DNA of 64,000 nucleotides from contig JASTWF010000034.1 in the NCBI GenBank assembly GCA_030390025.1, positions 5,766,001 to 5,830,000 on the forward strand. The letters run 5' to 3'. Under the pieces are notes generated by a model. The model ran no database searches and was not told where the DNA came from. It saw only the letters and a list, made by a program, of their open reading frames with translations. Positions within the stretch are counted from its first letter, which is position 1. Every line of letters starts with the position of its first letter. Below, piece by piece: positions 1,354 through 64,000 of this stretch. The stretch comes from Squalus acanthias (Eukaryota). The translations under genes were made by a program, and so were the position numbers.

Positions 1354-1534
1354 ATGGATCAGAATCTGAGAGCAGTAGATTGGAATGTTACAACAATGGA
1401 CAGGAGTTTCAGCTCGCAGTTTGACTTTCTTTCAGCAAATTATGATTGGCTGCCATTAGACTGGCGGATAGAGTTGGTGCTTCAGATTATCCAATACTTT
1501 TACTATCCCCTCCTTGCTGCTGTTGGGGTTCCTG
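1354..1534 (+). CDS. Putative first coding exon of a class A GPCR (chondrichthyan GPR139/GPR142-like expansion), copy A; downstream exons not found
   Basis: ACAATGG start at 1354 (second in-frame ATG at 1396) gives MDQNLRAVDWNVTTMDRSFSSQFDFLSANYDWLPLDWRIELVLQIIQYFYYPLLAAVGVP. It has an NVT sequon, a hydrophobic TM1-like start and a consensus phase-1 donor CCTG|GTAAGT at 1534/1535. Frame and length are conserved in the paralog. Family assignment is from recalled motif similarity, not a search. Confidence 0.75.
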
Positions 1535-1689
1535 GTAAGTGTCTCTAACCAACTATTAACTCTGCAAACCTTTGCTAACTGTATTACTATTCTTCATTCT
1601 TTGCTGCTGTTGGTGTCGTTGGTAAGTCTCTTTCTCCAGAAATTGGGTCTATAAATCACGTTTCACTGTATTACTGTTTGTTATTTAAA

Positions 1690-2175
1690 TCTTGGGAAGA
1701 GCGAAGCCATTGTGTTCGGTCCTGGTCACAAACTCCATTCTCTATCTACCGATTCAGTCCCCCTCCCTGGTCAATGTCTGAGGCTGAACCAGGCTGTTTG
1801 CAACCTCTGCGATCTCTTTGTCCCTGAGCTGAGTTCCGATCTCATATCCTCTGAATCACCAGTCCTGCCGACTGCCACCCCCAAAATTTCACCCATCTCC
1901 GTTCCACCTCAGCCCTTCCACTGCATAAACCCTCATCCGTGCCTTTGCTAAATCCAGACTCGACTATTCCAATGCTCCCCTGGCCGGCCTCCCAGTAACA
2001 AGCCTCCATAAACTAGAGCTTATCCAAAACTCTGCTGCCCATATCCTAACACACATCATGTCCCGTTCACCCATCACCCCTGTGATCACTGACCAACATT
2101 GGCTGCCGATCCGGCAACAACTCGATTTAAATATTCTCCTCCTCATGTTCAAATCCCACCATGGCCTCACCCCTG
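1690..2175 (+). mobile_element. L2-clade LINE ORF2 C-terminal fragment
   Basis: Translates to SPITPVITDQHWLPIRQQLDLNILLLMFKSHHGLTP, resembling the L2 HITPVL..LHWLP..R..FKILLL.FK..HGLAP region. Confidence 0.8.
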
Positions 2176-2269
2176 CAATTATTCCCATTCCCTTGCTCTT
2201 TTCCCATTGTCCTGCAAATTGTTCCCCTTCAGGTATTTATCCAATTCCCCTTTTAAAGTTAATTTCCTT

Positions 2270-2362
2270 CCCTCTGTACCTCTCCCTGTCTTTCAGTCTC
2301 TATTTTTATTTCTCTCTTTCTCCCTTTCTCTCTCTCCCTCTTCTCTCTCTCTCTGTCTCTTG
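2270..2362 (+). repeat. CT-rich low-complexity tract
   Basis: Degenerate (CT)n run; paralog at ~45680-45772. Confidence 0.8.
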
Positions 2363-2364
2363 CT

Positions 2365-2730
2365 CATAGAATCATAGAACAGTACATCACAGACAGAGAC
2401 CATTCGGCCCATCGTGTCCATGCCGTCTCTTTGAAAGAGTTATTTATTCAGTCCTACTCTTTAATCAGAGCCCCATAAAAAATTCCCCTTCATCTAATTA
2501 CCCCATTCCCTTTCGAAAATTACTATTGAATCTGCTTCCACCACGTTCTCAGTCAGTGCATTCTAGATCACAACTCACTGCGTAAAGAAAATTCTCATCT
2601 CTCCTCTGGTTCTTTTGACAATTACTTTAAATGTGTTTCCTCTGGTTACCCACCATTCTGCCTCTGGAAACCGACTTACTTACTGTATCAAAACCCATTA
2701 CAATCTGGAACATCTATATTAAATCTCCCC
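2365..2730 (-). mobile_element. CR1 3' end, decayed
   Basis: Starts with CATAGAATCATAGAA (reverse complement of an 8-bp CR1-type 3' tail), followed by GACCATTCGGCCCATCG 3'UTR-like sequence seen at other CR1 ends in the window. Confidence 0.7.
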
Positions 2731-2731
2731 T

Positions 2732-4920
2732 AATGGAAAAGTACAAAGAAAGACCAGGTTTAAAAGTTTTCAATTGGGGAAAGGCCAAATTTACTAAGCT
2801 GAGATGTAATTTAGGAAAAGTGGACTGGAAACAGCTTCTTAATTGGAAATCAGTTCGGAGCTGTGGGAAGCATTCAACGAGGAGATAGTGAGGGCTCAGA
2901 GCAACTATATTCCCAAAAAGGTAAAGGATGGGACTTCCAAATCCAGAGTCCCCTAGTTGTCAAGGGGAATACAGGGTAGGAAACGGGAACAAAAAGGGAA
3001 GCTTTTGTCAGATACCGAGAGCTCAATACTACAGAAAGCCTAGAGGGGTATAGAAAGTGCAGGGGTGAAATTAAAAAGTAAATTAGGAAAGCAAAGAGAT
3101 GGCATGAAAAAATATTGGCAAGTAAAATCAAGGAAAACCCAAAGATGTTTTATACATACATCAAGAGCAAGAGGATATCTAAGGAAAGAGTCTGGCCTAT
3201 TATAGAACAAAAAGTTAATCTGTGTGTAGAGGCGGAAGACGTGGATATGGTTCTTAATAAATACTTTGTGTCTGTCTTCACAGAAGAGTGAGACGATGCA
3301 GACATTGTAGTTAAGGAGGAGGAGTGTGAAATATTAGATGAGACAAACATAGTGAGAGAGGAAACATTAAGGGGTTCAGCATCTTTCAAATTAGATAAAT
3401 CACGAGGCTCGGATGAAATGTATCCCAGGCTTTTAAGGGAGGAAATAGCGGAGGCTCAGACCATCATTTTCCAATCCTCTCTGGCTACAGGCATGATGAC
3501 AGAGGACTGGAGGACTGCTAACGTTGTACCATTGTTTAAAAAGGGAGAAAGGGATAGACCGAGTAATTACAGGGCAGTCAGTCTAACCTTGATTGTGGAA
3601 AAAAATTTTGAATGATTCTGAGTGGCAATATAAATCGGCATTTAGAAAGGCACAGATTAATCAAGGACAGTCAGCATGGTAATGTTAAGGGAAGGTCGTG
3701 TCTGACTAACTTGATTGAATTTTTTGAGGAGGTAATGAGAAGGGTCGATGAGGGGAGTGCATTTGATGTAGTCCACGTAGATATTAGTAAGGCCTTTGAC
3801 AAGGTCCCACATGACAGGTTGGTCATTGGATCCAAGGGAAAGTGGCAAGTTGGATCCAAAATTGGCTCAGTGGCAGGAAACAAAGGTCGTAATAGTCAAC
3901 GGGTGTTCTTTGTGACTGGAAGGTTGTTTCCAGTGGGGTTCCACAGGGCTCAGTACTAGGTCCCCTGCTATTTGTGGTATATTTCAATGATTTAGTCTTC
4001 AGTGTTGGGGCCATGATGAAGAAGTTTGCACATGATACAAAAATTGGCCGTGTGGTTGATAGTGAGGAAGACAGCTGTAGACTGCAGGAAGATATCAATG
4101 GACTGGTCCGGTGGGCAGAACAGTGGCAAATGGACTTCATTTCGGAGAAGTGTGAGGTAATGGATTGGTGGAGGTCTAAAAAAGAGGGCATACACAATAA
4201 ATGGTAGGATCCTGAGAATTGCAGAGGAACAGAGGGTCCTTGGAGTACATTTCCATATATCTATAAATATATCAGGACATATAGATAGGGTGGTTAAGAA
4301 GGCATGTGGGATACGTTGCTTTATTAGCCGAGGCATAGGATATAAAAGCAGGGAGGGTATGTTAGAACTGTATAAAACACTAGTTAGGCCATTGCTAGAA
4401 TACTGTGTAAAGTTCTGGTCACCACATTACAGGAACGATGTGATTGCACGAGAGACATTACAAAGGAGATTTACGTGGATGTTGCCAGGACTGGATAATT
4501 TTAGCTATGAGGAAAGATTGGATAGCCTGGGGTTGTTTACTTTGGAACAGAGGAGGCTGAGGGAAGATTTAATTGAGGTGTATAAAATTATGAGAGGCCT
4601 AGCTGGAGTCGATAGGGAGGAACTATTTGCCCTGACAGGGAGGTCAATAACCGGGGGTCATAGATTTAAATTAATTAGTAGAAGGATTAGAGGGGAGATG
4701 GGGAGAAATGTTTTCACCCAGAGGGGTGTGGGGGTCTGAAACTCACGGCCTGAAAGTGTGGTCGAGGCAGAAACCCTCATCACGTTTAAAACGTACATGG
4801 ATATGCACTTGAAATGCTGTAACCTACAGGGCTAAGGACCAAGAGCTAGAAATTGGGATTAGGGTGCAGAGCTCTATTTCGACCACGGATGACACAATGG
4901 GCCAAATGGCCTCCTCCCGT
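2732..4920 (+). mobile_element. 5'-truncated CR1 LINE (linker-RT-C-terminus), multiple frameshifts and stops
   Basis: ORF pieces: EDWRTANVVPLFKKGERDRPSNYRAVSLT, SQHGNVKGRSCLTNLIEFFEEV, FAHDTKIG (FADD-like), LYKTLVRPLLEYCVKFWSPHYR, YEERLDSLGLFTLEQRRLREDLIEVYKI. Confidence 0.93.
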
Positions 4921-4924
4921 ATTC

Positions 4925-5515
4925 TTGCCCATCCCTAGTTACCCGTGAGAAAATGGTGGGCCTTCAAACTGAGCCACTGCAGCCCCTGTGGTGAAGGTGC
5001 TCCCACAATACTGTTATGGAAGGAATTTCAGGCTTTTGACCGAGTGACGATGGAGGAACGGCGATATATTTGAAGGGTACGGAAGCATAGTGGTAATGTT
5101 GCTGGACTAGTAAACCAGATGACTGGACAAATGATCCAGAGTTCAAGTCCCACCAGCTGGGGAATTTAAATTCAATTAATTAAACAAATCTGGAATGAAA
5201 AGCTAATATCAGGAATGGTGACCATGAAACTACGGGATTTTTATAAAAACCTATCTGGGAAGGAAATCTGCCGTCCTTACCCAGTCTGGCTGAAATGTGA
5301 CTCCAGACCCAGATCAATGTGATTAACTTTTAACTGCCCTCTGAAATGCCCGAGCAAGCCATTTAGTTCTTTAAGGCGGCTCACCACCACCTTCTCAAGG
5401 GCAATTAGGAATGGACAATAAATGTGGCCTTGCCAGCGACGCCCACATACCATGAATGAATAAAAAATTGTTCCAGCCTGGATGGTGAGTGACATGAAGT
5501 TGGAACTTGGTTGTG
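4925..5515 (-). mobile_element. 3' region of a LINE (same family as 42025-43715), interrupted by a SINE
   Basis: TGCCCATCCCTAGTT...GCTCCCAC...TTTTGACC...CGATATATTT matches 42076-42210, and the match resumes after the SINE (CCTGGATGGTGAGTGAC vs CAGGATGGTGTGTGAC at ~42218). Confidence 0.7.
5075..5467 (+). mobile_element. tRNA-derived SINE with LF-SINE-like core and LINE-derived tail
   Basis: A-box-like AGCATAGTGG and B-box-like GAGTTCAAGTCCC. Core GGAAGGAAATCTGCCGTCCTTACCCAGTCTGGC...GTGACTCCAGACCC resembles the LF-SINE core as recalled. The tail ends ATGAATGAATAAAAAA. Confidence 0.8.
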
Positions 5516-6367: not shown

Positions 6368-9113
6368 CATTCACACAGGCTTTTTAGAGAGACAGGACCA
6401 GTCACACAGGCTTTTTAAAGAAACAGGACCAGTCACACAGGCTTTTTAAAGAGACAGGACCAGTCACACAGGCTTTCTAAAGAGACAGGACCAGACACAC
6501 AGGCTTTTTAAAGAGACAGGGCCAGTCACACAGGCATTCTAAAGAGACAGGACCACTCATGCAGGCTTTTTAAAGATACAGGACCAGTCACACAGGCTTT
6601 TTAAAGAGACAGGACGGGTCACACAGGCTTTTTAAAGAGACAGCACCAGTCACACAGGCTTTTTAAAGAGACAGGACTAGTCACCCAGGCTTTTGAAGAG
6701 GCAGGACAAGTCACGCAGGCTTTTTAGAGAGACAGGACCAGTCACACAGGCTTTTTAAAGAGACAGGACCAGTCACATCGGCTTTTTGAAGAGACAGGAC
6801 CAGTCACACAGGCTTTTTGAAGAGACAGGACCAGTCACACAGGCTTTTTAAAGAGACAGGTCCAGTCACACAGGCTTTTGAAGAGACAGGAGCAGTCACA
6901 CAGGCTTTTTGAACAGACAGGATGAGTCAAAGAGGCTTTTTGAAGAGACAGGTCCAGTCACACAGGCGTTTTAAAGAGACAGGACCAGTCACACAGGCTT
7001 TTTAAAGAGACAGGTCCAGTCACAACGGCTTTTTAAAGAGACAGGATCAGCCACACAGGCTTTTTGAAGAGACAGGACCAGTCACACAGGCTTTTTGAAG
7101 AGACAAGACCAGTCACACAGGATTTCTAAAGAGACATGACCAGTCACACAGGCTTTTTAAAGAGACAGGACCAGTCACACAGGCTTTTTAAAGAAACAGG
7201 ACCAGTCACGCAGGCTTTCTAAAGAGACAGGAGCAGTCACAACGGCTTTTTAGAGTGACAGGGCCAGTCACACAGGCTTTTTAAAGAGACAGGACCAGAC
7301 ACACAGGCTTTTTAAAGAGACAGGACCAGTCACACAGGCGTTTTGAAGAGACAGGACCAGTCACACAGGCTTTTTGAAGAGACAGGACCAGTCACACAGG
7401 ATTTCTAGAGACATGACCAGTCACACAGGCTTTTTAAAGAGACAGGACTAGTCACACAGGCTTTTTAAAGAAACAGGACCAGTCACGCAGGCTTTCTAAA
7501 GTGACAGGAGCAGTCACAACGGCTTTTTAGAGAGACAGGGCCAGTCACACAGGCTTTTTAAAGAGACAGGACCAGACACACAGGCTTTTTAAAGAGACAG
7601 GACCAGTCACACAGGCTTTTGAAAGAGACAGGACCAGTCACACAGGCTTTTTAAAGAGACAGGACCAGTCACAAAGGCTTTGTAAAGAGACAAGTCCAGT
7701 CGCACAGGCTTTTTAAAGAGACCTGATCAACCACACAGGCTTTTTAAAGAGATCGCACCAGTCACACAGGCTTTTTAGAGAGACAGGACCACTGACACTG
7801 GCTTTTTAAAGAGACAGGACCAGTCACACAGGCTATTTAAAGAGACAGGTCCAGTCACGCAGGGTTTTTAAATAGACAGGACCAGTCACGCAGGCTTTTT
7901 AAAGAGACAGGATTTTACACACAGGCTTTTTAAAGAGACAGGACCAGTCACAGAGGCTTTTTGAAGAGACCGGACCCCTCACACAGGCTTTTTAAAGAGA
8001 CAGGACCCCTCGCACAGGCTTTTTAAAGAGACGAGACCAGTCACACAGGCTTTTTAAAGAGACAGGACCAGTCACGCAGGCTTTTTAAAGAGACAGGACC
8101 AGTCCCACAGGCTTTTTTGAAGAGACAGGACCAGTCACACTGGCAATCTAAATTTACATAACCACACACACAGGCTTTTTGAAGAGACAGGACCAGTCAC
8201 ACATTCTTTTGAAAGAGATAGGACCAGTCACACAGGCTTTCTAAAGAGACAGGACCAGTCACAATGGCTTTTTAGAGAGAAAGGACCAGTCACACAGGCT
8301 TTCTAAAGAGACAGAAACATTCACACAGGCTTTCAAAAGAGACAGGACCAGTCACACAGGCTTTTTAAAGAGACAAGACCATTCACACAGGCTTTCTAAA
8401 GAGACAGAACCATTCACACAGGCTTTCAAAAGAGACAGGACCAGTCACACAGGCTTTTTAAAGAGACAGGACCATTCACACAGGCTTTCTAAAGAGACAG
8501 GACGAGTCACACAGGCTTTTTAAAGAGACAGGTCCAGTCACACAGGCTTTTTGAAGAGACAGGACCAGTCACACAGGCGTTTGTAGAGACAGGACCAGTC
8601 ACCCAGGCTTGTTAAAGAGACAGGTCCAGTCAAGCAGTCTTTTTAAAGAGACAGGACCACTCACACTGGCTTTTTAAAGAGTCACACAGGCTTTCTTATT
8701 CGGCAGAACCAGTCGCACGGGCTTTTTAAAGAGACAGGACGAGTCACACGGCCTTTTTAAAGAGACAGGACCACTCACACAGGCTTTTTGAAGAGACAGG
8801 ACCAGTCACACAGGCTTTTTGAAGAGACAGGATGAGTTACACATGCTTTTTAAAGAGACATGTCCAGTCACACAGGCTTTTTAAAGAGACGAGTCACACA
8901 GGCTTTTAAAAAGGCAGGACCAGTCACACAGGTTTTTAGAAAGAGACAGGACCAGTCACACAGGCGTTTGCAGAGACAGGACCAGTCACCCAGGCTTGTT
9001 AAAGAGACAGGTCCAGTCGCAGGCTTTTTAAAGAGACAGGACCAGTCACACAGGCTTTTTAACGCGACAGCACCAGTCACACTGGCTTTTTAGAGAGACA
9101 GGGCCAGTCACAC
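6368..9113 (+). repeat. 31-bp minisatellite, roughly 85-90 units, runs into the gap
   Basis: Consensus CACACAGGCTTTTTAAAGAGACAGGACCAGT repeated head to tail with scattered substitutions and no unique spacers. Confidence 0.97.
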
Positions 9114-9613
9114 NNNNNNNNNNNNNNNNNNNNNNNNNNNNNNNNNNNNNNNNNNNNNNNNNNNNNNNNNNNNNNNNNNNNNNNNNNNNNNNNNNNNNNN
9201 NNNNNNNNNNNNNNNNNNNNNNNNNNNNNNNNNNNNNNNNNNNNNNNNNNNNNNNNNNNNNNNNNNNNNNNNNNNNNNNNNNNNNNNNNNNNNNNNNNNN
9301 NNNNNNNNNNNNNNNNNNNNNNNNNNNNNNNNNNNNNNNNNNNNNNNNNNNNNNNNNNNNNNNNNNNNNNNNNNNNNNNNNNNNNNNNNNNNNNNNNNNN
9401 NNNNNNNNNNNNNNNNNNNNNNNNNNNNNNNNNNNNNNNNNNNNNNNNNNNNNNNNNNNNNNNNNNNNNNNNNNNNNNNNNNNNNNNNNNNNNNNNNNNN
9501 NNNNNNNNNNNNNNNNNNNNNNNNNNNNNNNNNNNNNNNNNNNNNNNNNNNNNNNNNNNNNNNNNNNNNNNNNNNNNNNNNNNNNNNNNNNNNNNNNNNN
9601 NNNNNNNNNNNNN
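9114..9613. other. Assembly gap (500 N)
   Basis: Run of N of round length between two different tandem arrays; probably a scaffolding placeholder of unknown true size. Confidence 0.98.
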
Positions 9614-12600
9614 ACCAATACACAGGGTAAAACTGTCAGTTAATTGTTAAATTGGGATATGATAACCAATACACAGGGTAAAAACTGTCAGTTAATTGTT
9701 AAATTGGGTATGATAACCAATACACAGGGTAAAACTGTCACAGTTAATTGTTAAATTGGGTATGATAACAAATACACAGGTAAAACTGTCAGTTAATTGT
9801 TAAATTGGGTATGATAACCAATACACAGGGTAAAACTGTCACAGTAATTGTTAAATTGGGTATGATAAACCAATACACAGGGTAAAAACTGTCACAGTTA
9901 ATTGTTAAATTGGGTATGATAACCAATACACAGAGTAAAACTGTCAGGTAATTGTTAAATTGGGTATGATAACAATACACAGGGTAAAACTGTCACAGTT
10001 AATTGTTAAATTGGGTATGATAACCAATACACAGGGTAAAACTGTCACAGTTAATTGTTAAATTGGTATGATAACCAATACACAGGGTAAAAACTGTCAG
10101 GTAATTGTTAAATTGGGTATGATAACCAATACACAGGGTAAAACTGTCACAGTTAATTGTTAAATTGGGTATGATAACCAATACACAGGGGTAAAACTGT
10201 CACAGTTAATTGTTAAATTGGGTATGATAACCAATACACAGGTGTAAAACTGTTCAGTTAATTGTTAATTGGGTATGATAACCAATACACAGGGTAAAAC
10301 TGTCAGTTAATTGTTAAATTGGGTATGATAAACAATACACAGGGTAAAACTGTCACAGTTAATTGTTAAATTGGGTATGATAACCAATACACAGGGTAAA
10401 ACTGTCACAGTTAATTGTTAAATTGGGTATGATAACCAATACACAGGGTAAAACTGTCAGTTAATTGTTAAATTGGGTATGATAACCAATACACGGTAAA
10501 ACTGTCACAGTTAATTGTTAAATTGGGTATGATAACCAATACACAGGGTAAAACTGTCACAGTTATTGTTAAATTGGGTATGATAACCAATACACAGGTA
10601 AAAACTGTCACAGTTAATTGTTAATTGGGTATGATAACCAATACACAGGGTAAAACTGTCAGTTAATTGTTAAATTGGGTATGATAACCAATACACAGGG
10701 TAAAACTGTCACAGTTAATTGTTAAATTGGTATGATAACAAATACACAGGGTAAAACTGTCAGTTAATTGTTAAATTGGTATGATAACCAATACACAGGG
10801 TAAAACTGTCAGGTATTGTTAAATTGGTATGATAACCAACACACCCAGGGTTAAAAACTTCAGTTAATTGTTAAATTGGGTATGATAACCAATACACAGG
10901 TAAAACTGTCAGTTAATTGTTAAATTGGGTATGAAAACCAATACACAGGATAAAACTGTCAGTTAATTGTTAAATTGGGTATGATAACCAATAACAGGGT
11001 AAAACTGTCACAGTTAATTGTTAAATTGGGTATGATAACCAATACACAGGGTAAAACTGTCAGTTAATTGTTAAATTGGGTATGATAACCAATACACAGG
11101 GTAAAACTGTCACAGTTAATTGTTAAATTGGTATGATAACCAATACACAGGGTAAAACTGTCACAGTTAATTGTTAAATTGGGTATGATAACCAATACAC
11201 AGGGTAAAACTGTCAGTTAATTGTTAAATTGGGTATGATAACCAATACACAGGGTAAAACTGTCACAGTTAATTGTTAAATTGGGTATGATAACCAATAC
11301 ACAGGGTAAAACTGTCAGTTAATTGTTAAATTGGGTATGATAACCAATACACAGGGTAAAACTGTCACAGTTAATTGTTAAATTGGGTATGATAACCAAT
11401 ACACAGGGTAAAACTGTCACAGTTAATTGTTAAATTGGGTATGATAACCAATACACAGGGTAAAACTGTCACAGTTAATTGTTAAATTGGGTATGATAAC
11501 CAATACACAGGGTAAAACTGTCAGTTAATTGTTAAATTGGGTATGATAACCAATACACAGGGTAAAACTGTCAGTTAATGGTTAAATTGGGTATGATAAC
11601 CAATACACAGGGTAAAACTGTCAGTTAATTGTTAAATTGGGTATGATAACCAATACACAGGTAAAACTGTCACAGTTAATTGTTAAATTGGGTATGATAA
11701 CCAATACACAGGGTAAAACTGTCACAGTTAATTGTTAAATTGGGTATGATAACCAATACACAGGTTAAAACTGTCACAGTTAATTGTTAAATTGGTTATG
11801 ATAACCAATACACAGGGTAAAACTGTCACAGTTAATTGTTAAATTGGGTATGATAACCAATACACAGGGTAAAACTGTCAGTTAATTGTTAAATTGGGTA
11901 TGATAACCAATACACAGGGTAAAACTGTCACAGTTAATGGTTAAATTGGGTATGATAACCAATACACAGGGTAAAACTGTCAGTTAATTGTTAAATTGGG
12001 TATGATAACCAATACACAGGGTAAAACTGTCACAGTTAATTGTTAAATTGGGTATGATAACCAATACACAGGTTAAAACTGTCAGTTAATTGTTAAATTG
12101 GGTATGATAACCAATACACAGGGTAAAACTGACAGTTAATTGTTAAATTGGGTATGATAACCAATACACAGGGTAAAACTGTCACAGTTAATTGTTAAAT
12201 TGGGTATGATAACCAATACACAGGGTAAAACTGTCACAGTTAATTGTTAAATTGGGTATGATAACCAATACACAGGGTAAAACTGTCAGGTAATTGTTAA
12301 ATTGGGTATGATAACCAATACACAGGGTAAAACTGTCACAGTTAATTGTTAAATTGGGTATGATAACCAATACACAGGGTAAAACTGTCAGTTAATTGTT
12401 AAATTGGGTATGATAACCAATACACAGGGTAAAACTGTCACTTAATTGTTAAATTGGGTATGATAACCAATACACAGGGTAAAACTGTCACAGTTAATTG
12501 TTAAATTGGGTATGATAACCAATACACAGGGTAAAACTGTCACAGTTAATTGTTAAATTGGGTATGATAACCAATACACAGGGTAAAACTGTCACAGTTA

Positions 12601-46140: not shown

Positions 46141-46141
46141 C

Positions 46142-48180: not shown

Positions 48181-48182
48181 AT

Positions 48183-48742: not shown

Positions 48743-49417
48743 CATAGAGTCATCGATAGTTATAGTTATACAGCACAGAAAGGGGCCCTTCGGCCCATTG
48801 TGTCCGCGCCGGCCATCAAGCCCTATCTATTCTATTCCCATTTTCCAGCACTTGGTCCGTAGCCTTGTATGCTATGGCATTTCAAGTGCTCATCTCAATG
48901 CTTCTTGAATGCTGTGAGGGTTCCTGCCTCTACCACCGTTTCAGGCAGTGAGTTCCAGATTCCAACCACACTCTGGGTGAAAAAGATTTTCCTCAAATCC
49001 CATCTAAACCTCCTGCCCCTTACCTTGAAACTCTGTGCCCTGGTGATTGACCCCTCTATTAAGGGGGAAATTCCTTTCTATCTACCCTATCTATGCCCCT
49101 CATAATTTTGTACACCTCAATCAGGTCCCCCCGCAGCCTTCTCTGCTCTAAGGAAAGCAACCCCAGCCTGTCCAGTCTCTCTTCATTGCTGCAGCGCTCC
49201 AGCCCAGGTAACATCCTGGTGAATCTCCTCTGCACCCTCTCCAATGCAATCACATCCTTCCTATAGTGTGGCGATCAGAACTACACACCGTATTCCAGCT
49301 GTGGCCTAACTAGCATTTTGTACATCTCCAACACAACCTCCCTGCTCTTATATTCTATGCCTCGGCTAATGAAGGCAAGCATCCCATATGCTTTTTTAAC
49401 CACCTTACCTACCTGTC

Positions 49418-50923: not shown

Positions 50924-51086
50924 TGTCCTGCTGTCTTCAGGGAACTATGTACATGCACACCAAGGTCCCTCTGGTCCTCTGTCCTTCCTAGGGTCTTACC
51001 ATTCATTTCGTATTTCCTTGCCTTGTTAGTCCTCCCAAAATGCATCACCCCACACTTTTCCGGGTTAAATTCAGTTTGCCCCTGTT

Positions 51087-54000: not shown

Positions 54001-55360
54001 AGTCCATTATAAAAGATGTAATAGCAGAGCACTTGGAAAACAGTGACAGGATCGGACAAAGTCAACATGGATTTACAAAAGGTAAATCATGCTTGACTAA
54101 TCTACTGGAATTTTTTGAGGATGTAACTGGTAGAATAGGTAAGGGAGAACCAGTGGATGTGGTGTATTTGGACTTTCAGAAGGCTTTCGATCAGATCCCG
54201 CATAAGAGATTAGCGTGCGAAGTTAAGGCACATGGGATTGGGGGCAAGGTATTGACTTGGATAGAGAACTGGTTGGCAGACAGGAAGCAAAGAGTTGGAA
54301 TAAACGGGTCTTTTTCCGAGTGGCAGGCAGTGACTAGTGAGCGTTTGCAGGGATCGGTGCGAGGAACCCAGCTATTCACAGTATATATTAATAATCTAGA
54401 TGAGGGAACTAGATGTAATATCTCCAAGTTTTCAGACGACACAAAGCTGGGTGGGTGTGTGTGCTGTGTGAGGAGGATGCAGAGAAACTCCAATATGATT
54501 TGCACAGGTTGGGTGATTGATCAGATGCATGGCAGATGCAGTATAATGTGGGTAAATACGAGGTTTTCCACTTTGGTGGCAAAAACAGGAAGACAGTTTA
54601 TTATCTGAACGGCAATAGATTGGGAGAAGGGGAAGTGCAACGAGACCTGCGTGTCCTTGTGCACCAGTTGCTGAAGGTAAGCATGCAGGTGCAGCAGGCA
54701 GTTAAGAAGGCAAATGGTATGTTGGCCTTCACAGCAAGAGGATTCGAGGACAGGAGCAAGGATGTCTTGTTGCAGTTGCACAGAGCCTTGGTGAGACCAC
54801 ACCTTGAGTATTGTGTGCAGTTGTGGTCGTCTTATCTGAGGAAGGATGTTCTTGCCATGGAGGGAGTGCAGCGAAGATTCACCAGACTGATACCTGGGAT
54901 GGCAGGAATGACGTATGAAGAGAGATTGTTTCGATTAGGCTTATAGTCGCTGGAGTTTAGAAGAATCAGAGGGGGTCTCATTGAAACTCATAAAAGTCTA
55001 ACAGGACTAGACAGACTAGATGCAGGAAGGATGTTCCCGATGGCGGGGGAGTCCAAAACCAGGGGTCACAGTCTAAGGATAAGGGGTAAGCCATTTAGGA
55101 CTGAGATGAGGAGGAATTTCGTCACCCAGAGAGTGGTGAACCTGTGAAATTCTCTACCACAGAAGGCAGTTGAGGCCAATTTATTAAATATATTCAAGAA
55201 GGAGTTAGTTATATTTCTTAAGGCTAAAGGGATCAAGGGTTATGGGGAGAAAGCAGGGACAGGGTTCTGAATTTGGATGATCAGCCATGATCGCATTGAA
55301 TATCGGAGCAGGCTCGAGGGGCCGAATGGACTACTCCTGCTCCTATCTTCTATGTTTCTA
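51087..55360 (+). mobile_element. Full-length-sized CR1 LINE (~4.3 kb), inactivated by stops and frameshifts
   Basis: 5' UTR, then ORF1 from ATG 51356 (CSSC...CGK*, GESIVRG, HIGTND) to ~52297. ORF2 has an APE endonuclease (CLNARSIRNK, ITETW, YKPPN, GDFN, SDHN) and RT (QHGF, LDFQKAFD, FSDD). Tail TTCTATGTTTCTA; candidate TSD TGTT at 51083-51086 and 55361-55364. Confidence 0.95.
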
Positions 55361-58300
55361 TGTTCTGCCTATCTAACCAAACCGTTTATATCGTCCTGTA
55401 GCCTGAGGCTTTCGTCCTCGCTTTTTACCACTCCACCAATTTTCGTGTCATCTGCGAACTTGCTGATCATACCTCCTACATTCATATCTGAATCATTAAT
55501 GTACACTACAAACAGCAAAGGTCCCAGCACCGATCCCTGCGGTACACCACTGGACCCAGGCATCAAGTCACAAAAACATCCTTCGACCATCACACTCTGC
55601 CTCCTGCCACTAAACCAATTTTGGATCCAATGTGCCAAATTGCCCTGGATTCCATGGGCTCTTACCTTCTTGACCAGTCTTCCATGTGGGACGTTGTCAA
55701 AAGCCTTACTGAAGACCATGTAGACGACATCAACTGCACTACCCTCATCCAGAAACCTGGTCACTTCAATCAAATTGCTTAGAACTGATCTCCCCCTTCC
55801 AAAGCCATGCTGACGATCCTTGATCAATCCTTGCCTCTTCAAGTGTAGACTAACTCTGTCCCTCTGAATTTTTTCCAAGAATTTCCCTACCACTGATGTT
55901 AGGCTCAATGGCCTGTAATTTCCTGGTTTATCCCTACTAACCTTCTTGAACAATGGTACTATGTTGGCTGTTCTCCAGTCATCTGGCACCTCCCCTGTGG
56001 TCAGAGAGGTTCTGAAAATTTATGTCAGAGCCCCTGCAGTCTCCTCCCTTGCCTCACACTGCAGCCTGGGATACATCTCGTCTGGGCCTGGGGATTTATC
56101 CACTTTTATGCCCACTAAAACCGCAATACCTCCTCCCTCTCAATACTAATTTATTCAAGTATACCACAATCGCCTTGCCTGATTTCTATGCCTACATCGT
56201 CCATCTCCATAGTGAACACAAATGCAAAATATTCATTTAAAACCTCACCCACATCTTCTGGCTCTACACACAGATTACCACTTTGGTCCCTAATGGGCCC
56301 TACTCTTTCCCTGGTTATCCTCTTGCCCTTAATATACTTATAAAACACCTTGGGATTTTCCTTTTTTTTGCCCGCCAGTGTTTTTTTCCATGCCCCCTCT
56401 TCGCTCTCCTAATTTCTTTTTTAAGTACCCCCCTGCACTTTCTATACTCCTCTAGGGCTTCCACTGTTTCTAGTCCTTTGTATCTGCCTAATGCCTCTCT
56501 TTCTTTCCCAATCCATTCTTGTATATCCCTTGACATCCAGGATTCCCTGGGCTTGTTGGTCCCAACCTTGACTTTTACGGGAACATGTTGGTGTTGTACT
56601 CTCTCTATTTCCTTTCTGAAAGAGTACCACTGCTCTGATGTGGATTTTCCTACAAATAGCTGATCCTAGTCCACTTTAACCAGATCCTGCCTTATCATAT
56701 TAAAATTGGCCTTCCCCCAATTTAGAACCATTATTCCGGTCCATCTTTGTCCTTTTCAATGACTACCTTAAATCTCACCGAATTATGGTCACTGTCACCA
56801 AAATGCTCTCCTACTAACACTTCTACCACTTGCATGGCTACATTCCCTAGAATTAGGTCCAGAACTGCCCCCTCTCTTGTAGCACTTTCTATATGTTGGC
56901 TCAAAAAGCTCTCCTGGATGCACTTTAACAATTCCGCACCCTCTAAGCCTTTCACACTCTGACTATCCCAGTTAATATTGGGGAAGTTGAAATCCCCTAC
57001 TATTATTACCCTATTATTCAGACACTTCTCTGAGATTTGCCTACATATCTGTTCTTCTATCTCCCCCTGACGGTTTGGGGCCCTGTAGTACACTCCCAGC
57101 AAAGTGCTTGCCCACTTTTTGGTTTTAAGTTCTACCCATATGGCCTCCTTAGAGGAACCTGCTAAGATATCATCCCTCATTACTGCAGTAATTGACTCCT
57201 TGATTAATATTGAGACACCCCCTCCTCTTTTACACCCCCTGTGTCTCGCCTGAAGATTCTATACCCCGGAATATTGAGCTGCCTGTCCTGCCCCTCCCTC
57301 AACCATGTATCTGTGATAGCAACAATATCATATCCCATGTGTTCATCAACACCTTCAATTCATCTGCCTTACTCGCAAGACTCCTTGCATTAAAATAAAT
57401 GCCCACCAGGCTTGCCTTACATTCTTGTGCCGTTACATATTTGCTCTGCCTTCCAGGCTGACTTGTTTTTTCCTCTATATTTGGCTGTGCATCACCCCCT
57501 ACTATAGCTCCACTCCGTATCCTATCCCTCTGCCAAGTTAGTTTAAACCGCACCCGCCTCCCCCCCCCCCCCGCCCCCCGCGCCAACAGCACTAGCAAAC
57601 CTCCCCGGAAGGATGTTGATCCCGTTCCGGTTCAGGTGCAACCCGTCCAAATTGTACAGGTCCCACCTTCCCCAGAAGCAGACCCAGTGATCCAGGAAAC
57701 GAAAGCCCTCCCTCCTGCACCAACTCTTTAGCCACGCATTCATCTGCTCTATCCTCCTTTTCCTATATTCACTAGCAAGTGGCACCGGGAGTAAAACAAA
57801 GATTACAACCTTTGAGGTCCTGCTTTTTAATCTGCTACCTAGCTCCCTAAATTCTTGTTGCAGGACCTCATCCCTCTTTTTACCCATGTCGTTGGTACCA
57901 ATGTGGATTACGACCTCTGACTGTTCGCCCTCCCCCTTCAGAATACCCTGCAGCCGTTCAGTGACATCCTTGAACCTGGCACCAGGGAGGCAACATACCA
58001 TCCTGGAGTCACGTCTGCGGCCACAGAAACGTCTATCTGTTCCCCTTACGATAGAATCCCCTGTCACTATTGCTCTCCCACTCTTTCCCCCCCCCCCACG
58101 CCTCCTGTGGTGCTGAGCCACTCGTAGTGCCATGGACTTGGCTCTTGCTGCATTCCTCTGAGAAACCCTCTCCCCCATCAGTATCCAAAATGGAAAATCT
58201 ATTGGAGAGGGAGATGGACCTTGGGGACTCCTGCACTGCCTTCCTAGTTCTTTTACACTGTCTGGCTGTCATCTATTTCCTATCTGCCTGTGCACTCTTT

Positions 58301-58786
58301 ACCTGCGGTGTGACCACCTCGTTAAATGTTCTATCCACGAAGATCTCAGCTTTGCGGATGCTCCACAGTGACTCCAGTCGCAGCTCCAGCTCCGAAACGC
58401 GGTTTTCGAGTAGCTGCAGCTGGAGACACTTCCTGCACATGTGTCCGCCCTGGACACCTAAAGTGTCCCTGACTTCCAACATAGCACAGGAGGAGCACTC
58501 CACGCTGCCGAGCTGCCCTGCCATGTCCTACCAATAATTTACTCCCTTTAAATTAAAGAATATTAAATACACTAGGTACCTTACTTCCCTTTAAGCACTA
58601 CTTGCTCTAAACTCGAGACCTTACTTTTACTTTAACGACTGGACTGTAGAAATACTGACCGGGTCTTGGAAGCTGACAAAGACAGAAAAAGAAAGGAACA
58701 CATCCCTCCCTGAACTCCCTCACTCACCAAACTCGCAGCTTAACACTCGGATCCAAGCTGCACTCCATGACAAACTGCACTCAAGC

Positions 58787-59574
58787 CAGCACTGAGGGAG
58801 TGCTGCATTGTTGGAGGGGCAGTACTGAGGGAGTGCATCTCTGTCAGAGGGGCAGTACTGAGGGAGCACTGCACTGTCAGAGGGGCAGTACTGAGGGAGC
58901 GCATCACTGTCAGAGGGGCAGTACTGAGGGAGTGCATCACTGTCAGAGGGACAGTACTGAGGGAGCGCATCACTGTCAGAGGGGCAGTACTGAGGGAGCG
59001 CATCACTGTCAGAGGGGCAGTACTGAGGGAGCGCCGCACTGTCAGAGGGGCTGTACTGAGGGAGCGCATCACTGTCAGAGGGGCAATACTGAGGGAGCAC
59101 ATCTCTGTCAGAGGGTCAGTACTGAGGGAGCGCATCACTGTCAGAGTGGCAGTACTGAGGGAGCACTGCACTGTCAGAGGGGCAGTACTGAGGGAGCACT
59201 GCCCTGTCAGAGGGGCCGTACTGAGGGAGCACTGCACTGTTAGTGGGGCAGTACTGAGGGAGCACTGCACTGTCAGAGGGGCAGTACTGAGGGAGCACTG
59301 CACTGTCAGAGGGGCAGTACTGAGGGAGCACTGCACTGTCAGTGGGGCAGTACTGAGGGAGCACTGCACTGTCAGAGGGGCAGTACTGAGGGAGCACTGC
59401 ACTGTCAGAGGGGCAGTACTGAGGGAGCGCTGCACTGTCAGAGGGGCAGTACTAAGGGAGCGCATCACTGTCAGAGGGGCAGTACTGAGGGAGCACTGCA
59501 CTGTCAGAGGGGCAGTACTGAGGGAGCACTGCACTGTCAGAGGGGCAGTACTGAGGGAGCACTGCACTGTCAGA
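58787..59574 (+). repeat. 33-bp minisatellite (~24 units) derived from a SINE body segment
   Basis: Unit GCAGTACTGAGGGAGCACTGCACTGTCAGAGGG. The first unit CAGCACTGAGGGAGTGCTGCATTGTTGGAGG nearly matches CAGTACTGAGGGAGTGCTGCACTGTTGGAGG in the SINE at ~62362-62392. Confidence 0.95.
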
Positions 59575-60045
59575 TAGGTAGGTTGGTGAGGACGTGGTCA
59601 AGCAGGCTATTCTCTCATCTTGGGTCTCCCACCACCTGCCGCAATCCCAGTCTGGCAGCTGTGTTCTTCAGGACTCGGTTAATGATGGTACTTCCGAGCC
59701 ACTCTTGGTGATGGACATTGAAGTTTCCCCCTCCCGACCCAGAGTATAATTTGCGCCTTTTCTGCTCTCGGTGCTCCCATCAACTGGTGTTCAGCATGAC
59801 GATGTGCCGATTCATCAGCTGAGGGAGGGCGGTAGGTGGTAATCGGCAGGAAGTTATCTTGCCCATGTCTGACTGGAAGCCATCAGACTTCATTATATCC
59901 TCAGGCAATGTTGAGGACTCGCAGGGTTTCTCCCTCCCGATTGTATACCCCTGTGTCCCAACCTCTGGTGGGTCTGTGCAGACCCTGGAATGGTGATGGA
60001 GGGTTTGAGAATGTTGACTGACAGGTATGTTTCTGTGAGTATGAT
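59575..60045 (-). mobile_element. Decayed LINE endonuclease fragment
   Basis: The reverse strand of 59695-59727 encodes NFNVHHQEWLG (GDFN motif region). IIILTETYL in the minus ORF 59893..60096 resembles the EN xTETW motif. Confidence 0.7.
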
Positions 60046-60273
60046 TATGCGAGAATTTAATGTTTCCAGAGTGTTTCCTGGAGTATTGAGGTGCATACAG
60101 CGTATTTATCTCATTGGTTAATATTTTAAGTGTTTTTCCTTTTATCCCTTCGTTTTAATCCTCTGCTCCTTTTAATTATTCTTCCCCTCGGTCAAACACG
60201 ATGACATGTTTGTCTGGGTAAGGTCACTCTTCTTCTTCTTCTTCCATTTTCAGGCAAAAGAGAAATGAACTGA

Positions 60274-61948
60274 GAATGAAATTCCTAAACTGAGGTGGGA
60301 GCAGTGTAATCTAGGCGGCCCTGGGAATCACATTCCTGGACTGAGGTGGGAGCAGTGTAATCTAGGCAGCCCTGGGAATGAAATTCCTGGACTGAGGTGG
60401 GAGCAGTGTAATCTAGGCAGACCTGGGAATGAAATTCCTAGACTGAGGTGGGAGCAGTGTAATCTAGTCTGTCCTGGGAATGAAATTCCTGGATTGAGGT
60501 AGGAGCAGTGTAATCTAGGCAGTCCTGGGAATGAAGTGCCTGGACTGAGGTGGGAGCAGTGTAATCTAGTCTGTCCCGCGGATGAAATTCCTGGACTGAG
60601 GTGGGAGCAGTGTAATCTAGTATGTCCCGGGAATGAAATTCCTGGACTAAGGTGGGAGCAGTGCAATCTAGTCTGTCCTGGGAATGAAATTCCTGGACTG
60701 TGGCGGGAGCAGTGTAATCTAGTCTGTCCCGGGGATGAAATTCCTGGATTTAGGTGGGAGCAGTGTAATTTAGGCGACCCTGGGAATGAAATTCCGGGAC
60801 TGACGCAGGAGCAGTGTAACCTAGACTCTCCCGGGAATGAAATTCCTGGATTGAGGTGGGAGCAGTGTAATCTAGGCAGCCCAGGGAATAAAATTCCTGG
60901 ATTGAGGCGGGAGCAGTGTAATCTAGCAGCCCAGGGAATAAAATTCCTGGATTGAGGTGGGAGCAGTGGAATCTAGGCAGCCCTGGGAATGAAATTCGTG
61001 GATTGAGGTGGGACCAGTGTAATCTAGGCTGTGCCTGGAAATGAAATTCCTGGATTGAGGTGGGAGCAGTGTAATCTAGGCTGTGCCTGAGAATGAAATT
61101 GCTGGACTGAGGTGGGAGCAGTGTAATCTAGGCAGCCCTGGGAATGAAATTCCTGGATTGAGGTGGGAGCAGTGTAATCTAGGCAGCCCTGGGAATGAAA
61201 TTCCTGGACTGAGGTGGGAGCAGCGTAATCTAGGCTGTGCCTGGGAATGAAATTCCTGGACTGAGGTGGGAGCAGTGTAATCTAGGCTGTCCTGGGAATG
61301 AAATTCCTGGACTGAGGTGGGAGCAGTGTAATCTAGGCTGTCCTGGGAATGAAATTCCTGGATTGAGGTGGGAGCAGTGTAATCTGGGCTGTCCTGGGAA
61401 TGAAATTCCTGGATTGAGGTGGGAGCAGTGTAATCTGGGCTGTCCTGGGAATGAAATTCCTGGATTGAGGTGGGAGCAGTGTAATCTAGGCTGTGCCTGG
61501 GAATGAAATTCCTGGATTGAGGTGGGAGCAGTGTAATCTAGGCAGCCCTGGGAATCACATTCCTGGATTGAGGTGGGAGCAGTGTAATCTAGGCAGCCCT
61601 GGGAATCACATTCCTGGATTGAGGTGGGAGCAGTGTAATCTAGGCTGTGCCTGGGAATGAAATTCCTGGATTGAGGCGGGAGCAGTGTAATCTAGGCTGT
61701 CCTGGGAATGAAATTCCTGGATTGAGGTGGGAGCAATGTAATCTAGGCAGCCCTGGGAATCACATTCCTGGATTGAGATGGGAGCAGTGTAATCTAGGCG
61801 GCCCTGGGAATGAAATTCCTTTACTGAGGTGGGAGCAGTGTAATCTAGGCTGTGCCTGGGAATGAAATTCCTTTACTGAGGTGGGAGCAGTGTAATCTAG
61901 GCTGTGCCTGGGAATCACATTCCTGGATTGAGGTGGGAGCAGTGTAAT
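60274..61948 (+). repeat. 51/52-bp minisatellite (~32 units)
   Basis: Unit GGGAATGAAATTCCTGGA(C/T)TGAGGTGGGAGCAGTGTAATCTAGGC(AGCC/TGTC)CT, which produces 17-aa repeating pseudo-ORFs. Confidence 0.96.
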
Positions 61949-62250
61949 GGTACCTCTATTGTTTCTTAACTCTAACCAAATAGATTCTGTCCTTGACCCC
62001 TCGAAGACACCCTCTTTCTCCAGCACTAATATTCTCCATAATCAATACTGTTAATCCACCTCCTTTCTTTCCTTCCCTATCTTTCCCGAACATCTTATAT
62101 CCAGGTATATTTAGTACCCAATCCTACCCTTTTTGAGCCAGGTCTCTGTTATCGTCACGACATCATTTTCCTATGTGGCTATTTGCGCCTGCAGCTCACC
62201 TACTTATTGACCACGCTTCGTGCGTTTGCACACATGCACTGTAAACCCAT
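61937..62250 (-). mobile_element. CR1 endonuclease fragment
   Basis: Minus frame EGSRTESIWLELRNNRGTITLL. The reverse strand of ~62210-62228 reads like (C)ANARSV, the EN N-terminal motif. Confidence 0.8.
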
Positions 62251-62256
62251 CTGACA

Positions 62257-62712
62257 GTGTCAGCTGTGGCTCAGTAGGTAGCACACTCGCCTCTCAGTCA
62301 GAGGTTGTGGGTTCCAAGCTCCAGGGACTTGAGACCATAAATCTAGGCTGACTCTCCAGTGCAGTACTGAGGGAGTGCTGCACTGTTGGAGGTGCCGTCT
62401 TTCGGATGAGATGTTAAACTGCTCTCTCAGGTGGACGTAAAAGATCCCGTTGCACTAGTTCGATGAAGAGTAGTGAAGTTATCCCCGGTGTCCTGGCCAA
62501 TAATTATCGCTCAATCAACATAACAAAAACTATTAATCTGGTCATTTTCACATTGCTGTTTTTGGGAGCTTGCTGTGCGCAAATTGGCTGCGGTGTTTCT
62601 CACCTGACAACAGTGACTACACTTCAAAAGTATTCATTGGCTGTAAAACGCTTCAAGACGTCCGGAGGTCGTGAAAGGCGATATATAAATGTAAGTCTTT
62701 CTTTCTCTTTTA
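62257..62712 (+). mobile_element. tRNA-derived SINE, DeuSINE/SacSINE1-like, with L2-type tail
   Basis: A-box TGGCTCAGTAGG and degenerate B-box GGTTCCAAG. Central CAGGTGGACGTAAAAGATCCC...CCCGGTGTCCTGGCCAA resembles the Deu domain as recalled. Tail GAAAGGCGATATATAAATGTAAGTCTTTCTTT. Confidence 0.85.
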
Positions 62713-62727
62713 TTTAGACCTTACAAT

Positions 62728-62970
62728 AGCAAAATACTGCGGATGCTGGAAATCTGAAATAACAACAGAAAATGCTGGAAACACTCAGCAATTCAGGCAG
62801 CATCCGTGGAGAGAAACAGAGTTAGCGTTTCAGGTCTGTGACCCTTCGACATAACTGGAAAAAGTTAGAAATGTAACAGATTGTAAGCAGGTGTAGGGGC
62901 AGGGAAAGGCGGGGGGAGGAATGAACAAAAGAGATGGTCTGTGATAGGGTGGAAGGCAGGAGAGGTTAAA
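62728..62970 (-). mobile_element. Probable Penelope-like element terminal remnant
   Basis: The reverse strand reads GAAGGGTCACAGACCTGAAACGCTAACTCTGTTTCTCTCCACGGATGCTGCCTGAATTGCTGAGTGTTTCCAGC..., which I recall as a common chondrichthyan PLE-type terminus. No coding part is present. Confidence 0.55.
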
Positions 62971-63009
62971 TGTTCCCAATGGGAATGGCAGAATCATTGG
63001 CTGTAAAAC

Positions 63010-63946
63010 GCTTCTATAGGCCACCAACTAGTGGGAAGGAAATACAGGAGCAAATTTGCAGGGAAATTGCAGAGGTGGAAGAAATATAGAGTGGTAATAA
63101 TGGGGGACTTCAGTTATCCTAATATAGAGTGAGATAATAATCGTACAAAGGGAAGAGAGGGGGAAGAATTTCCTTAGTGAGTTCAAGAGAACTTTCTTGA
63201 TTGGTGCATTTCTGGCCCAAAGAGGAAGGAGGCATTGCTGGATCTGGTTCTGGGGAATGAGGTAGGTGAAGTGGAGAAGATTTCAGTAAGGGAGCGCACA
63301 GGGAACGGTGATCGCAGTATCATGAGGTTTATATTAGCTATGGAAAAGGACAAGGAGCAATCTAGAGTAAAAATACTTCATTGGGGGAGGGCCAATTTCA
63401 GTGGGTTGAGAACGGAGCTGGCTTGGGTAAAAGGAATCAAAGATTGGCAGGCAAAACTGTCATCGAACAATGGGCTGCCTTTAAAGAAGAGATGATTCAG
63501 GTACAATCGAGGTACATTCCCACGAGGGGGAAAGGTAGGGCAACCAAAGCCAGAGCTCCCTGGATGACGAAAGAGATAGTGGAAGATAGAGAGTAAGAGG
63601 AAGCAGAGAAATGGGGCGTATGACAGATGTCAAGTTCAGAATACAAGTGAGAACCAGGCTGAATATAGAAAGTTCAAAGAGGAAGTGAAAAAGGAAATAA
63701 GAGGGGCAAAGAGAGAATATTAGAATAGATTGGCAGCTAACATAAAATGGAATCCAAAAGTCTTCTTTTGGCAAATAAATATTAAACGGGCAGTAAGAGG
63801 TGGGGTGGGGCTGATTAAGGGCCAAAAAGGAGACATACGAATGGAGGCAGAGGGCATGGCTGAGATAGTAAATAAATACTTTGCATCTGTCTTTAGCAAG
63901 GAAGAAGCTGCTGCCAAAGTCACAGTGAAAGAGGAGGTAGTTGAGT
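63010..63946 (+). mobile_element. CR1 ORF2 fragment (EN C-terminal half and linker), decayed
   Basis: FYRPP, MGDFSYP, LDLVLGNE, RAPWMTKEI, NPKVFFWQIN, NKYFASVFSKE, with several stops. Confidence 0.88.
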
Positions 63947-64000
63947 AAAGTGTTGTAGTGACTCTGGTTCAATGAGTCTGTTTGTTCAATGACTGTAATT

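Follow-up and report, generated by a model that had tools for sequence, protein, structure and literature searches.

In excerpts of PMC1885805 and PMC3325998, the clustered protocadherins, UGT1A and GCNT2 are described as loci in which first exons with individual promoters are arrayed in tandem on one strand and end in one donor phase. Alternative N-terminal exons are also recorded for Gr39a, Gr28b and Or69a of Drosophila and for Gr60a-m of Blattella in the relevant parts of PMC3011837 and PMC6175461. The insect loci are the closest precedent for the locus described here: within a seven-helix family under birth-and-death evolution, they join tandem first exons, of which some are pseudogenic, to shared 3' exons. 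In those loci a long variable exon is combined with short shared exons, whereas the shark family would show the reverse proportions, exon 1 contributing 60 of ~360 residues while the loops of the body hold the remaining variable stretches, as seen in an entropy track. To our knowledge, the Gr and Or receptors of insects fall outside the rhodopsin-type GPCRs. A further point of reference is vertebrate GPR139, which is a two-exon gene in human and is 70 to 96% conserved across vertebrates according to PMC7318219.

The window, by which we mean the whole 64,000-nucleotide stretch of Squalus acanthias DNA that was analyzed, contains two same-strand exons with a common phase-1 donor, as the original prediction had stated. 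Both were found to be intact (A and B, Table 1). Their coding parts are 181 nt each, start at an ATG at 1354 (A) and 44663 (B), and contain no stop codon or frameshift. The exon-1 profile of the family matched A with an E value of 2e-36 and B with an E value of 6e-32, and a database search with the exon-1 peptide gave 12 matches, 11 of them named (best E value of 2e-23); a Pfam search of the two exons produced no domain match. By these comparisons, A and B were confirmed as exon 1 of "probable GPR139" receptors of sharks, as sequence of this family and not as complete genes.

Table 1. Positions of features within the window
Feature	Positions	Strand	Basis or remark
Block copy A, from LINE pieces ahead of the promoter through exon 1 to 3.4 kb into intron 1	1..4915	+	left end outside window
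Promoter-upstream element of A: short leader and three 51-bp units	1010..1182	+	TRF, alignment to B
TATA-like box of A (putative)	1217..1226	+	sequence; same bases at 44526 in B
Exon A, coding part, 60 codons + G: N-terminal segment and TM1 start, GPR139-like receptor	1354..1534	+	
Donor A, GTAAGT, phase 1	1535..1540	+	sequence
Degenerate intronic copy of exon end, second GTAAGT at 1622	1597..1627	+	A-B comparison, sequence
Breakpoint of copy A	4905..4925	.	LINE without tail, right half of host element absent; B has both
31-bp satellite, 89 copies	6371..9113	.	tandem repeat search; runs up to gap
Assembly gap, 500 N	9114..9613	.	between two different satellites; true size not given by N count
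52-bp satellite, ~592 copies	9614..39956	.	tandem repeat search; begins at gap
Block copy B, nested LINE structure intact	43377..48143	+	blastn to copy A
Promoter-upstream element of B: leader and one 51-bp unit	44421..44491	+	51/54 to A
TATA-like box of B (putative)	44526..44535	+	sequence
Exon B, coding part, 60 codons + G	44663..44843	+	family profile match
Donor B, GTAAGT, phase 1	44844..44849	+	sequence
Two degenerate exon-end copies, donor-like sites 44941 and 45028	44916..45033	+	A-B comparison, sequence
19.1 kb without gap, ~90% LINE pieces and tandem repeats, without 7TM exon	44850..63946	.	
Candidate cassette C, start: promoter-upstream element cut by window edge	63947..64000	+	42/54 ungapped, blastn E 4e-7

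The chondrichthyan "probable GPR139" models (e.g., XP_067882871.1 of Heterodontus francisci, with others from Heptranchias perlo, Pristiophorus japonicus and Rhincodon typus, the RefSeq/UniRef names being automatic) resemble A and B in having an N-terminal NLRTIDWNVTTM-type repeat, an exon 1 that ends in YYPLLAAVGVP with 58 to 70% identity over exon B, and a donor in the same position. Unlike anything seen in this window, they also carry a 7TM body. The family junction is a phase-1 intron placed after ...VGVP and before the TM1 Asn, and both A and B conform to it. The junction residue was V or A in 207 of 214 gene models, either of which the G left by the phase-1 donor permits, and 11 of 32 database matches read through into the intron as GK, with the donor positioned as in A and B. 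Among solved structures, the best match to a full-length member of the family was human GPR139 (PDB 7VUG and 9M42), the TM1 stretch of which aligns across the shark exon junction. The E value of this match (1.7e-12) argues for a GPR139-"like" receptor and not an orthologue. GPR139 is a conserved gene, whereas the receptors of the shark family exist in many copies and are distant from it. No candidate emerged when short relatives of exon A that stand alone were sought, and the exon-end pattern had no match in metagenome scans; one metagenome locus, which resembled neither the promoter nor the receptors, was set aside as a chance hit.

No continuing 7TM exon was found in the window, in line with what had been reported from the sequence. 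tblastn with 12 relatives and the full-length profile, both run over the whole window, gave nothing past exon 1 (best other E value of 1.8), and a body-only profile built from 210 models detected no 7TM exon in the six-frame translation (best E value of 3.3). In planted controls, consisting of 40-residue fragments carrying 30% random changes, the body search recovered 13 of 13 at E values of 1.2e-6 or lower. The absence of a 7tm_1 body exon downstream of A or B applies to the readable sequence of the window, 1-9113 and 9614-64000. A strong acceptor-like site at ~60254, ahead of a 51-bp array, was considered as a partner for B and rejected, as each + frame of 60255-61960 contains at least 30 stops and a phase-1 join from B meets a stop within a few codons. 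The description of the flanks as almost entirely transposable elements and satellite was also upheld: repeats, counted as tandem arrays plus self-similarity, cover 84% of 1536-9113, 98% of 9614-44400 and 90% of 44845-63946, and LINE-type Pfam matches (RVT_1, endonuclease, GDSL esterase) were obtained for 9 of 13 ORFs tested, one of the nine being weak. The gap of 500 N is present and, because it joins two different satellites, the adjacency of A and B is unproven.

A and B sit in one duplication of ~5 kb that includes upstream LINE pieces. The two copies aligned by blastn in three pieces of 84.5, 94.2 and 88.5% identity, and the likeness extends across the upstream LINE fragment (94%) and 3.4 kb of the intron (91 to 95%), whereas resemblance to relatives upstream of the exon was seen only over the ~180 bp that immediately precede the ATG. 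Each exon had been credited with its own conserved upstream region; this holds near the ATG, and the rest mostly reflects the shared ancestry of the duplicated block. In copy B, a LINE complete with its tail lies inside a host element, both halves of which are collinear. In copy A the LINE ends ~40 bp short of its tail, and nothing in B closely matches the sequence past 4915. Because A breaks inside a LINE that B has complete, A looks like a truncated copy, which lends direct support, for this copy, to the partial duplication that had been offered as a simpler alternative. It is unlikely that A and B are alleles set in tandem by the assembler, given 91 to 95% identity in the intron and different sequence past 4915.

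The predicted promoters of A and B are 98% identical, and TRF reported a repeat at 1028-1179 with a period of 51 and 3.0 copies. The result of a sigma-70 scan was disregarded, that model being inapplicable to a vertebrate promoter. The promoter-upstream element has a third copy on the + strand, missed by the original prediction, in the last 54 bp of the window. It begins where the A and B elements begin and stays in register up to the window's last base. Its score of 42/54 compares with 29 for the next best site elsewhere and 34 for the best of 200 shuffled queries, and nhmmer with the B unit gave it an E value of only 0.69. From these 54 bp we suggest that it is probably the start of a third cassette, C, the projected exon of which would begin at or after ~64189, outside the window. 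The proposal that exon 2 of B lies beyond the window is thereby weakened, since the probable cassette C follows B by 19 kb with no body in between. The locus would resemble the protocadherin, UGT1A and GCNT2 loci in its same-strand first exons, common donor phase and a predicted promoter for each. It differs from them in that no constant exon was identified, the family has many bodies, and exon 1 encodes about one-sixth of the protein and is not a recognition domain. The tandem array itself amounts to two exons and a probable third promoter element, with A and B across a gap from each other and the promoters predicted only.

The relation between exon 1 (head) and the remainder of the receptor (body) was then compared across the family, which comprised 2003 clusters at E values of 1e-60 or lower among 8000 scored. 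Gene models were taken from the best 120 of the 2003 matches and from the members of 30 clusters. Among 121 models fetched from one related species there were 116 different bodies, and 206 different bodies were counted among the 214 models used for pairing, which remained from 259 after exclusion of 31 headless and 14 short-headed models. Not one of the 22,271 pairs with a head identity of 0.75 or less (that of A and B is 0.70) had a body identity above 0.961, and all 35 pairs with bodies at 0.99 or above had heads at 0.875 or above, these being automatic models that may join a body to the nearest head by construction and so are blind to extra first exons. At the family level, then, no constant exon common to heads of 75% identity or less was found in the 214 models. 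Debris of the kind opposite to A and B is common among the gene models, 31 of the 259 having a body but no head of the family. Isoform labels were carried by only 2 of the 164 cluster members listed, and neither has an N-terminus encoded by an exon of the family; in the H. perlo isoform pair, one body is annotated with two different 5' ends. Head and body distances were correlated in two species (rho of 0.69 and 0.70, reached in none of 300 permutations) and uncorrelated in two others (0.05 and 0.02).

The coding parts of A and B have diverged more than their surroundings, a pattern that neutral decay does not produce. Identity is 86% in the coding parts and 91 to 98% in the flanks, and it falls to 75% over codons 22 to 49, a patch picked after seeing the data; 15 of 60 residues differ between the peptides. 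The excess is also seen in the dN of 0.165, compared with 4.6 to 9% in the intron. The dN/dS of 1.14 does not differ from 1 (P = 1.0) and so does not show positive selection on exon 1. Since dS is also raised (P = 0.014 to 0.048), gene conversion would fit the joint rise of dS and dN as well as selection.

We favor, with some reserve, the view that A and B are first exons of separate two-exon GPR139-like genes in a shark tandem cluster, stranded by partial duplication and deletion, and not alternative first exons. A normal gene of the family would consist of a promoter, the 181-nt exon 1, a long repeat-filled intron and one large exon 2 that encodes the rest of TM1 through TM7. Unequal recombination among the many LINE copies would duplicate or delete pieces and, because the intron makes up most of the gene length, the breaks would often part the two exons. 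On this view A would be a duplicate that ends 3.4 kb inside its intron, and copy B would have lost its exon 2, because the next promoter element follows 19 kb on with none between. Stranded exons of this kind would not give rise to a receptor by themselves, save by occasional read-through splicing to the exon 2 of the next gene, and might still give or receive sequence for the variable N-terminal patch by gene conversion. In favor of stranding are the composition of the family, a large set of whole genes with many bodies, and the LINE likeness on both sides of the exons. Against it, A and B keep their ATG, frame, donor and 98% identical promoter while their coding parts diverge more than the flanks, the H. 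perlo pair suggests that a body can accept different upstream exons, the head-body correlation is absent in two of four species, and the break in A may result from a deletion within its intron, the gap then concealing exon 2. If the exons are stranded, the locus is an ordinary remnant of a tandem family, and exon counts taken across a gap in satellite DNA mean little.

It appears unlikely that shark orphan-GPCR clusters hold more first exons than bodies, with at least two promoters and fast-diverging N-terminal exons (B, C and perhaps A) being spliced in frame to one 7TM exon and stranded exons from broken genes being recruited as additional variable exons. Its local form, in which B, C and perhaps A would each splice from their own promoters to the next downstream exon 2, giving few N-termini per body and many small units, we consider improbable. 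A first exon lacks an acceptor, so that splicing from B would pass over C and reach that exon 2 in frame. Such sharing would accord with the ungapped 19.1 kb without a body between B and the probable C, the intact frames, common phase and nearly constant V or A at the junction, the excess of coding dN over the intron, and the two 5' ends of the H. perlo body. It is opposed by the lack, in 22,271 model pairs, of clearly different heads on one body, by the equally good fit of gene conversion to the substitution rates, by the small share of exon 1 in a receptor that varies also in its body loops, and by the broken state of A and its position across the gap; twelve + strand AATAAA sites between B and C, a signal common in introns, count weakly in the same direction. 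Were B and C to have a common body, alternative first exons with coding sequence would be a source of diversity in a vertebrate GPCR, and a protocadherin/UGT1A-type cluster would be seen beginning from ordinary tandem genes.

We are also doubtful that every gene is intact, with each first exon paired to one body, the exon 2 of A lying in the gap (or the scaffold being misjoined), that of B being separated from its first exon by a long intron that reaches past the window, and a decayed promoter fragment within this intron accounting for the edge match at 63947. The round size of the gap and the different satellites on either side do point to hidden sequence, the exons and promoters are intact, and the poor nhmmer score would suit a decayed fragment. 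A head-plus-body model on a 33-kb whale shark contig, which bounds the gene span from above only, is compatible with this arrangement, as are the two exons of human GPR139, whose intron is ~40 kb. Yet the match at the edge keeps register and strand with the elements of A and B and ends only with base 64000, and the intron of A is broken at 4915. A programmed array across the scaffold, in which many variable first exons would serve one constant 7TM exon, is very improbable in spite of the two, probably three, same-strand cassettes in 64 kb without a body, as one related species has over a hundred different bodies that vary strongly in their loops, and a constant body of the protocadherin or UGT1A kind is accordingly unlikely from these sequences.

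No paper describing this family was found in a literature search that included shark genome papers, the Squalomix bioRxiv tandem-cluster tables being outside its scope. The family is large, with a variable N-terminus and variable loops. Among the matches listed for 44200-45300 in the short contigs of four presumed-RNA runs, there was neither a splice joint nor a loose end at 44843/44844. Two contigs from the presumed-RNA runs cross donor B unspliced and may represent DNA, pre-mRNA or paralogues. The additional donor-like sites were set aside as alternative donors: read-through to the site at 1622 in A runs into stop codons, and the two in B, at 44941 and 45028, are both in phase 2 relative to the ATG.

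Exons A and B, two lone first exons of a GPR139-like shark receptor family, lie on the same strand, as the original prediction had described, with intact frames, and because each measures 181 nt from ATG to GTAAGT donor, both are in phase 1. At 15 of the 60 encoded positions the two peptides carry different residues. Both exons have a putative TATA-like box 137 bp 5' of the ATG, and upstream of it a 51-bp unit is present in three copies in A and one in B. As to the conserved upstream region that had been claimed for each exon, several of the 32 matches of an exhaustive search also resemble translations of the 180 bp before the ATG, so its core is conserved in relatives. An out-of-frame ATG 11 bases 5' of the start (1343 in A and the equivalent place in B) opens a short overlapping ORF, and 14 codons past the start both exons have another ATG, in frame and in the same sequence context. 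In each copy the 42-bp unit of the family's N-terminal 14-residue repeat is present about twice, beginning in the 5' UTR, and just inside the intron the exon end and donor recur in degenerate form every ~90 bp (1597-1627 in A; 44916-44946 and 45003-45033 in B).

Coordinates of the first exons, the gap and the satellites beside it
Feature	Position	Strand	Description
Exon A	ATG 1354, donor GTAAGT 1535	+	181 nt, without stop or frameshift
31-bp satellite	6371-9113		Adjoins gap
Sole gap in window	9114-9613		500 N; 31-bp satellite left, 52-bp satellite right
52-bp satellite	9614-39956		Adjoins gap
Exon B	ATG 44663, donor GTAAGT 44844	+	181 nt, without stop or frameshift

Searches across the window with 12 relatives (tblastn) and a full-length profile matched only the two first exons, and a profile of the body alone (the 7TM-encoding remainder, exon 2) gave a best E value of 3.3; in its control, 13 of 13 planted fragments with 30% changed were recovered. 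These results bear out the observation that a continuing 7TM exon could not be found after either donor. The intervals between and after the exons are, as had been stated, almost entirely transposable elements and satellites, with repeat cover of 84, 98, and 90%, and the only uncovered stretches of at least 300 bp outside the exons are 5840-6364 and 62411-63011. The 30-kb 52-bp array is 96 to 97% homogeneous and shows no relationship to the 31-bp satellite on the other side of the gap; its many one-base differences in homopolymer length may be read errors. Within 60200-61948, a strong acceptor-like site (pyrimidine run plus CAG, ~60254) lies directly 5' of a 33-copy 51-bp array, whose best plus-strand frame gives a 17-residue repeat with Cys, yet 30 stops. 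LINE copies on both strands, presumably CR1-like by architecture, are stacked at 49418-50919, 51300-55364, and 55372-58557 with pieces of GDSL-esterase ORF1, endonuclease, and RT; 49418-50919 and 53859-55364 are 92% identical.

Positions 1-4915 match 43377-48143, with identities of 94% in the upstream LINE, 98% in the promoter, and 95% and 91% in the intron; the two exons form part of one duplication, in which the copy of A is broken. In B, a plus-strand LINE with its tail is nested in a minus-strand element with two collinear halves. In A, the equivalent LINE ends before the tail at 4915, the right half of the host element is absent, and the sequence beyond has no close match in B. Position 4915 is a rearrangement junction, either a partial-duplication end or a deletion edge. 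It is followed by 1.4 kb, then satellite, then the contig end at the gap; given the round gap size and the unlike satellites on either side, the distance between A and B in the assembly, and even their relative orientation, would be tentative.

The coding parts of A and B are 86% identical, versus 91 to 98% in the flanks (dN 0.165, dS 0.145, ratio 1.14). Nonsynonymous sites have diverged more than the intron (p 2e-5); for synonymous sites the excess is weak (p 0.014-0.048). An 84-bp coding patch (1417-1500 versus 44726-44809) is only 75% identical, with synonymous sites raised too. This excess is explained by gene conversion of a patch from a further paralogue, or by selection on the extracellular N-terminus while the genes were live. 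It shows that A and B have not merely decayed since duplication, and says nothing of their present use.

A search with exon B matched 12 longer proteins (best E 2e-23); 11 are shark models, for most of which the assigned name is "probable GPR139." In a full-length family member, Pfam 7tm_1 begins at residue 62, just past the exon junction, and human GPR139, described in an excerpt of PMC7318219 as a two-exon gene, is the best solved relative (E 1.7e-12). Of 8000 candidates scored against this member, 2003 clusters reached E <= 1e-60, and the 120 best on the list all come from sharks. The donor position is common to the whole family, since the residue directly past the junction is V or A in 207/214 models and the intron is read through as GK in 11/32 matches. 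These family relationships place the window in a shark-type genome. Family-wide, variability in the head (the exon-1-encoded N-terminal part) is roughly double that in the body (entropy 1.44 versus 0.73), whose loops hold further variable stretches. No paper on the shark expansion was found among sources including few subscription papers, a term look-up being empty in passages of PMC8455134, PMC11979771, PMC10620051, and bioRxiv 10.1101/2025.06.08.657570; the available part of PMC12208981 held nothing on sharks or exons. A and B add to an automatically annotated family two new members that are probably broken.

The reading we favor, with moderate confidence, is that A and B are stranded first exons left by birth-and-death turnover. 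The original observation is confirmed and extended, and its interpretation, that the two exons feed a shared downstream body, is unproven. What favors that pattern more than anything in the prediction itself is the right edge of the window, where an ungapped comparison of the last 54 plus-strand bases (63947-64000) with the beginning of the promoter-upstream element gives 42/54 identities (blastn E 4e-7), against a maximum of 29 at other places in the window and of 34 among 200 shuffled queries (plus strand). These bases are probably the start of a third same-strand first-exon cassette, C, cut by the edge; the evidence is good but short, as nhmmer with the single unit of B gave only E 0.69 over the 54 bases. 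If C is a cassette, its exon would start at or after about 64189, and the 19.1 kb from B to the next promoter, an interval with no gap, would contain no body. Two readings fit this: exon 2 of B was lost, or B splices past C onto a downstream exon 2. A first exon has no acceptor, so such splicing is mechanistically easy and we do not dismiss a local shared body, unlikely as we judge it. That all the genes are intact and paired 1:1 with their own bodies is likewise improbable. The LINE piece preceding 63947 differs from that before A and B.

Of the 259 models fetched, 14 with short heads and 31 lacking a head were set aside; the other 214 have both the complete family head and a body. These 214 carry 206 different bodies, and in the 22,271 pairs with heads at most 75% identical over the last 40 head residues, the class into which A and B fall at 70%, body identity never exceeds 0.961, which speaks against a single constant exon and makes a programmed array of variable first exons very improbable. 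All 35 pairs with bodies at least 0.99 identical have heads at least 0.875 identical, and within a single species (set of 241 models) 121 models have 116 different bodies. Head and body distances correlate in Heptranchias perlo (rho 0.69) and Pristiophorus japonicus (0.70), and not in Heterodontus francisci (0.05) and Rhincodon typus (0.02), in a sample so rich in close paralogues that permutation counts are not probabilities. The way automatic models are built may itself enforce a 1:1 pairing, and the sample favors the best matches, so the result would leave room for small shared units.

Tandem variable first exons with common constant exons are described, in the available parts of PMC1885805 and PMC3325998, for the UGT1, GCNT2, and protocadherin clusters. 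Excerpts of PMC3011837 and PMC6175461 describe insect Gr/Or loci, the closest parallel that involves a seven-helix receptor, in which long first exons are spliced to short common 3' exons and some isoforms are pseudogenic. The shark locus is filed with neither group, because its variable part would be only a sixth of the protein and no constant exon was found.

Isoform labels were present on 2/164 listed cluster members, which have a common body and N-termini that are not family exons. These H. perlo isoforms, X1 and X2 (P0227, P0229), join the family body to short N-termini unrelated to family exon 1, the body apparently being fed by foreign upstream exons. Family members (P0002, P0263, and others) carry between one and about ten copies of the N-terminal 14-residue repeat, which contains an N-x-T sequon. 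Ten within-species pairs have heads at least 95% identical yet bodies less than 90% identical, suggesting recombinant receptors; in P0065 and P0045 the heads are near-identical and the bodies part from the second extracellular loop onward.
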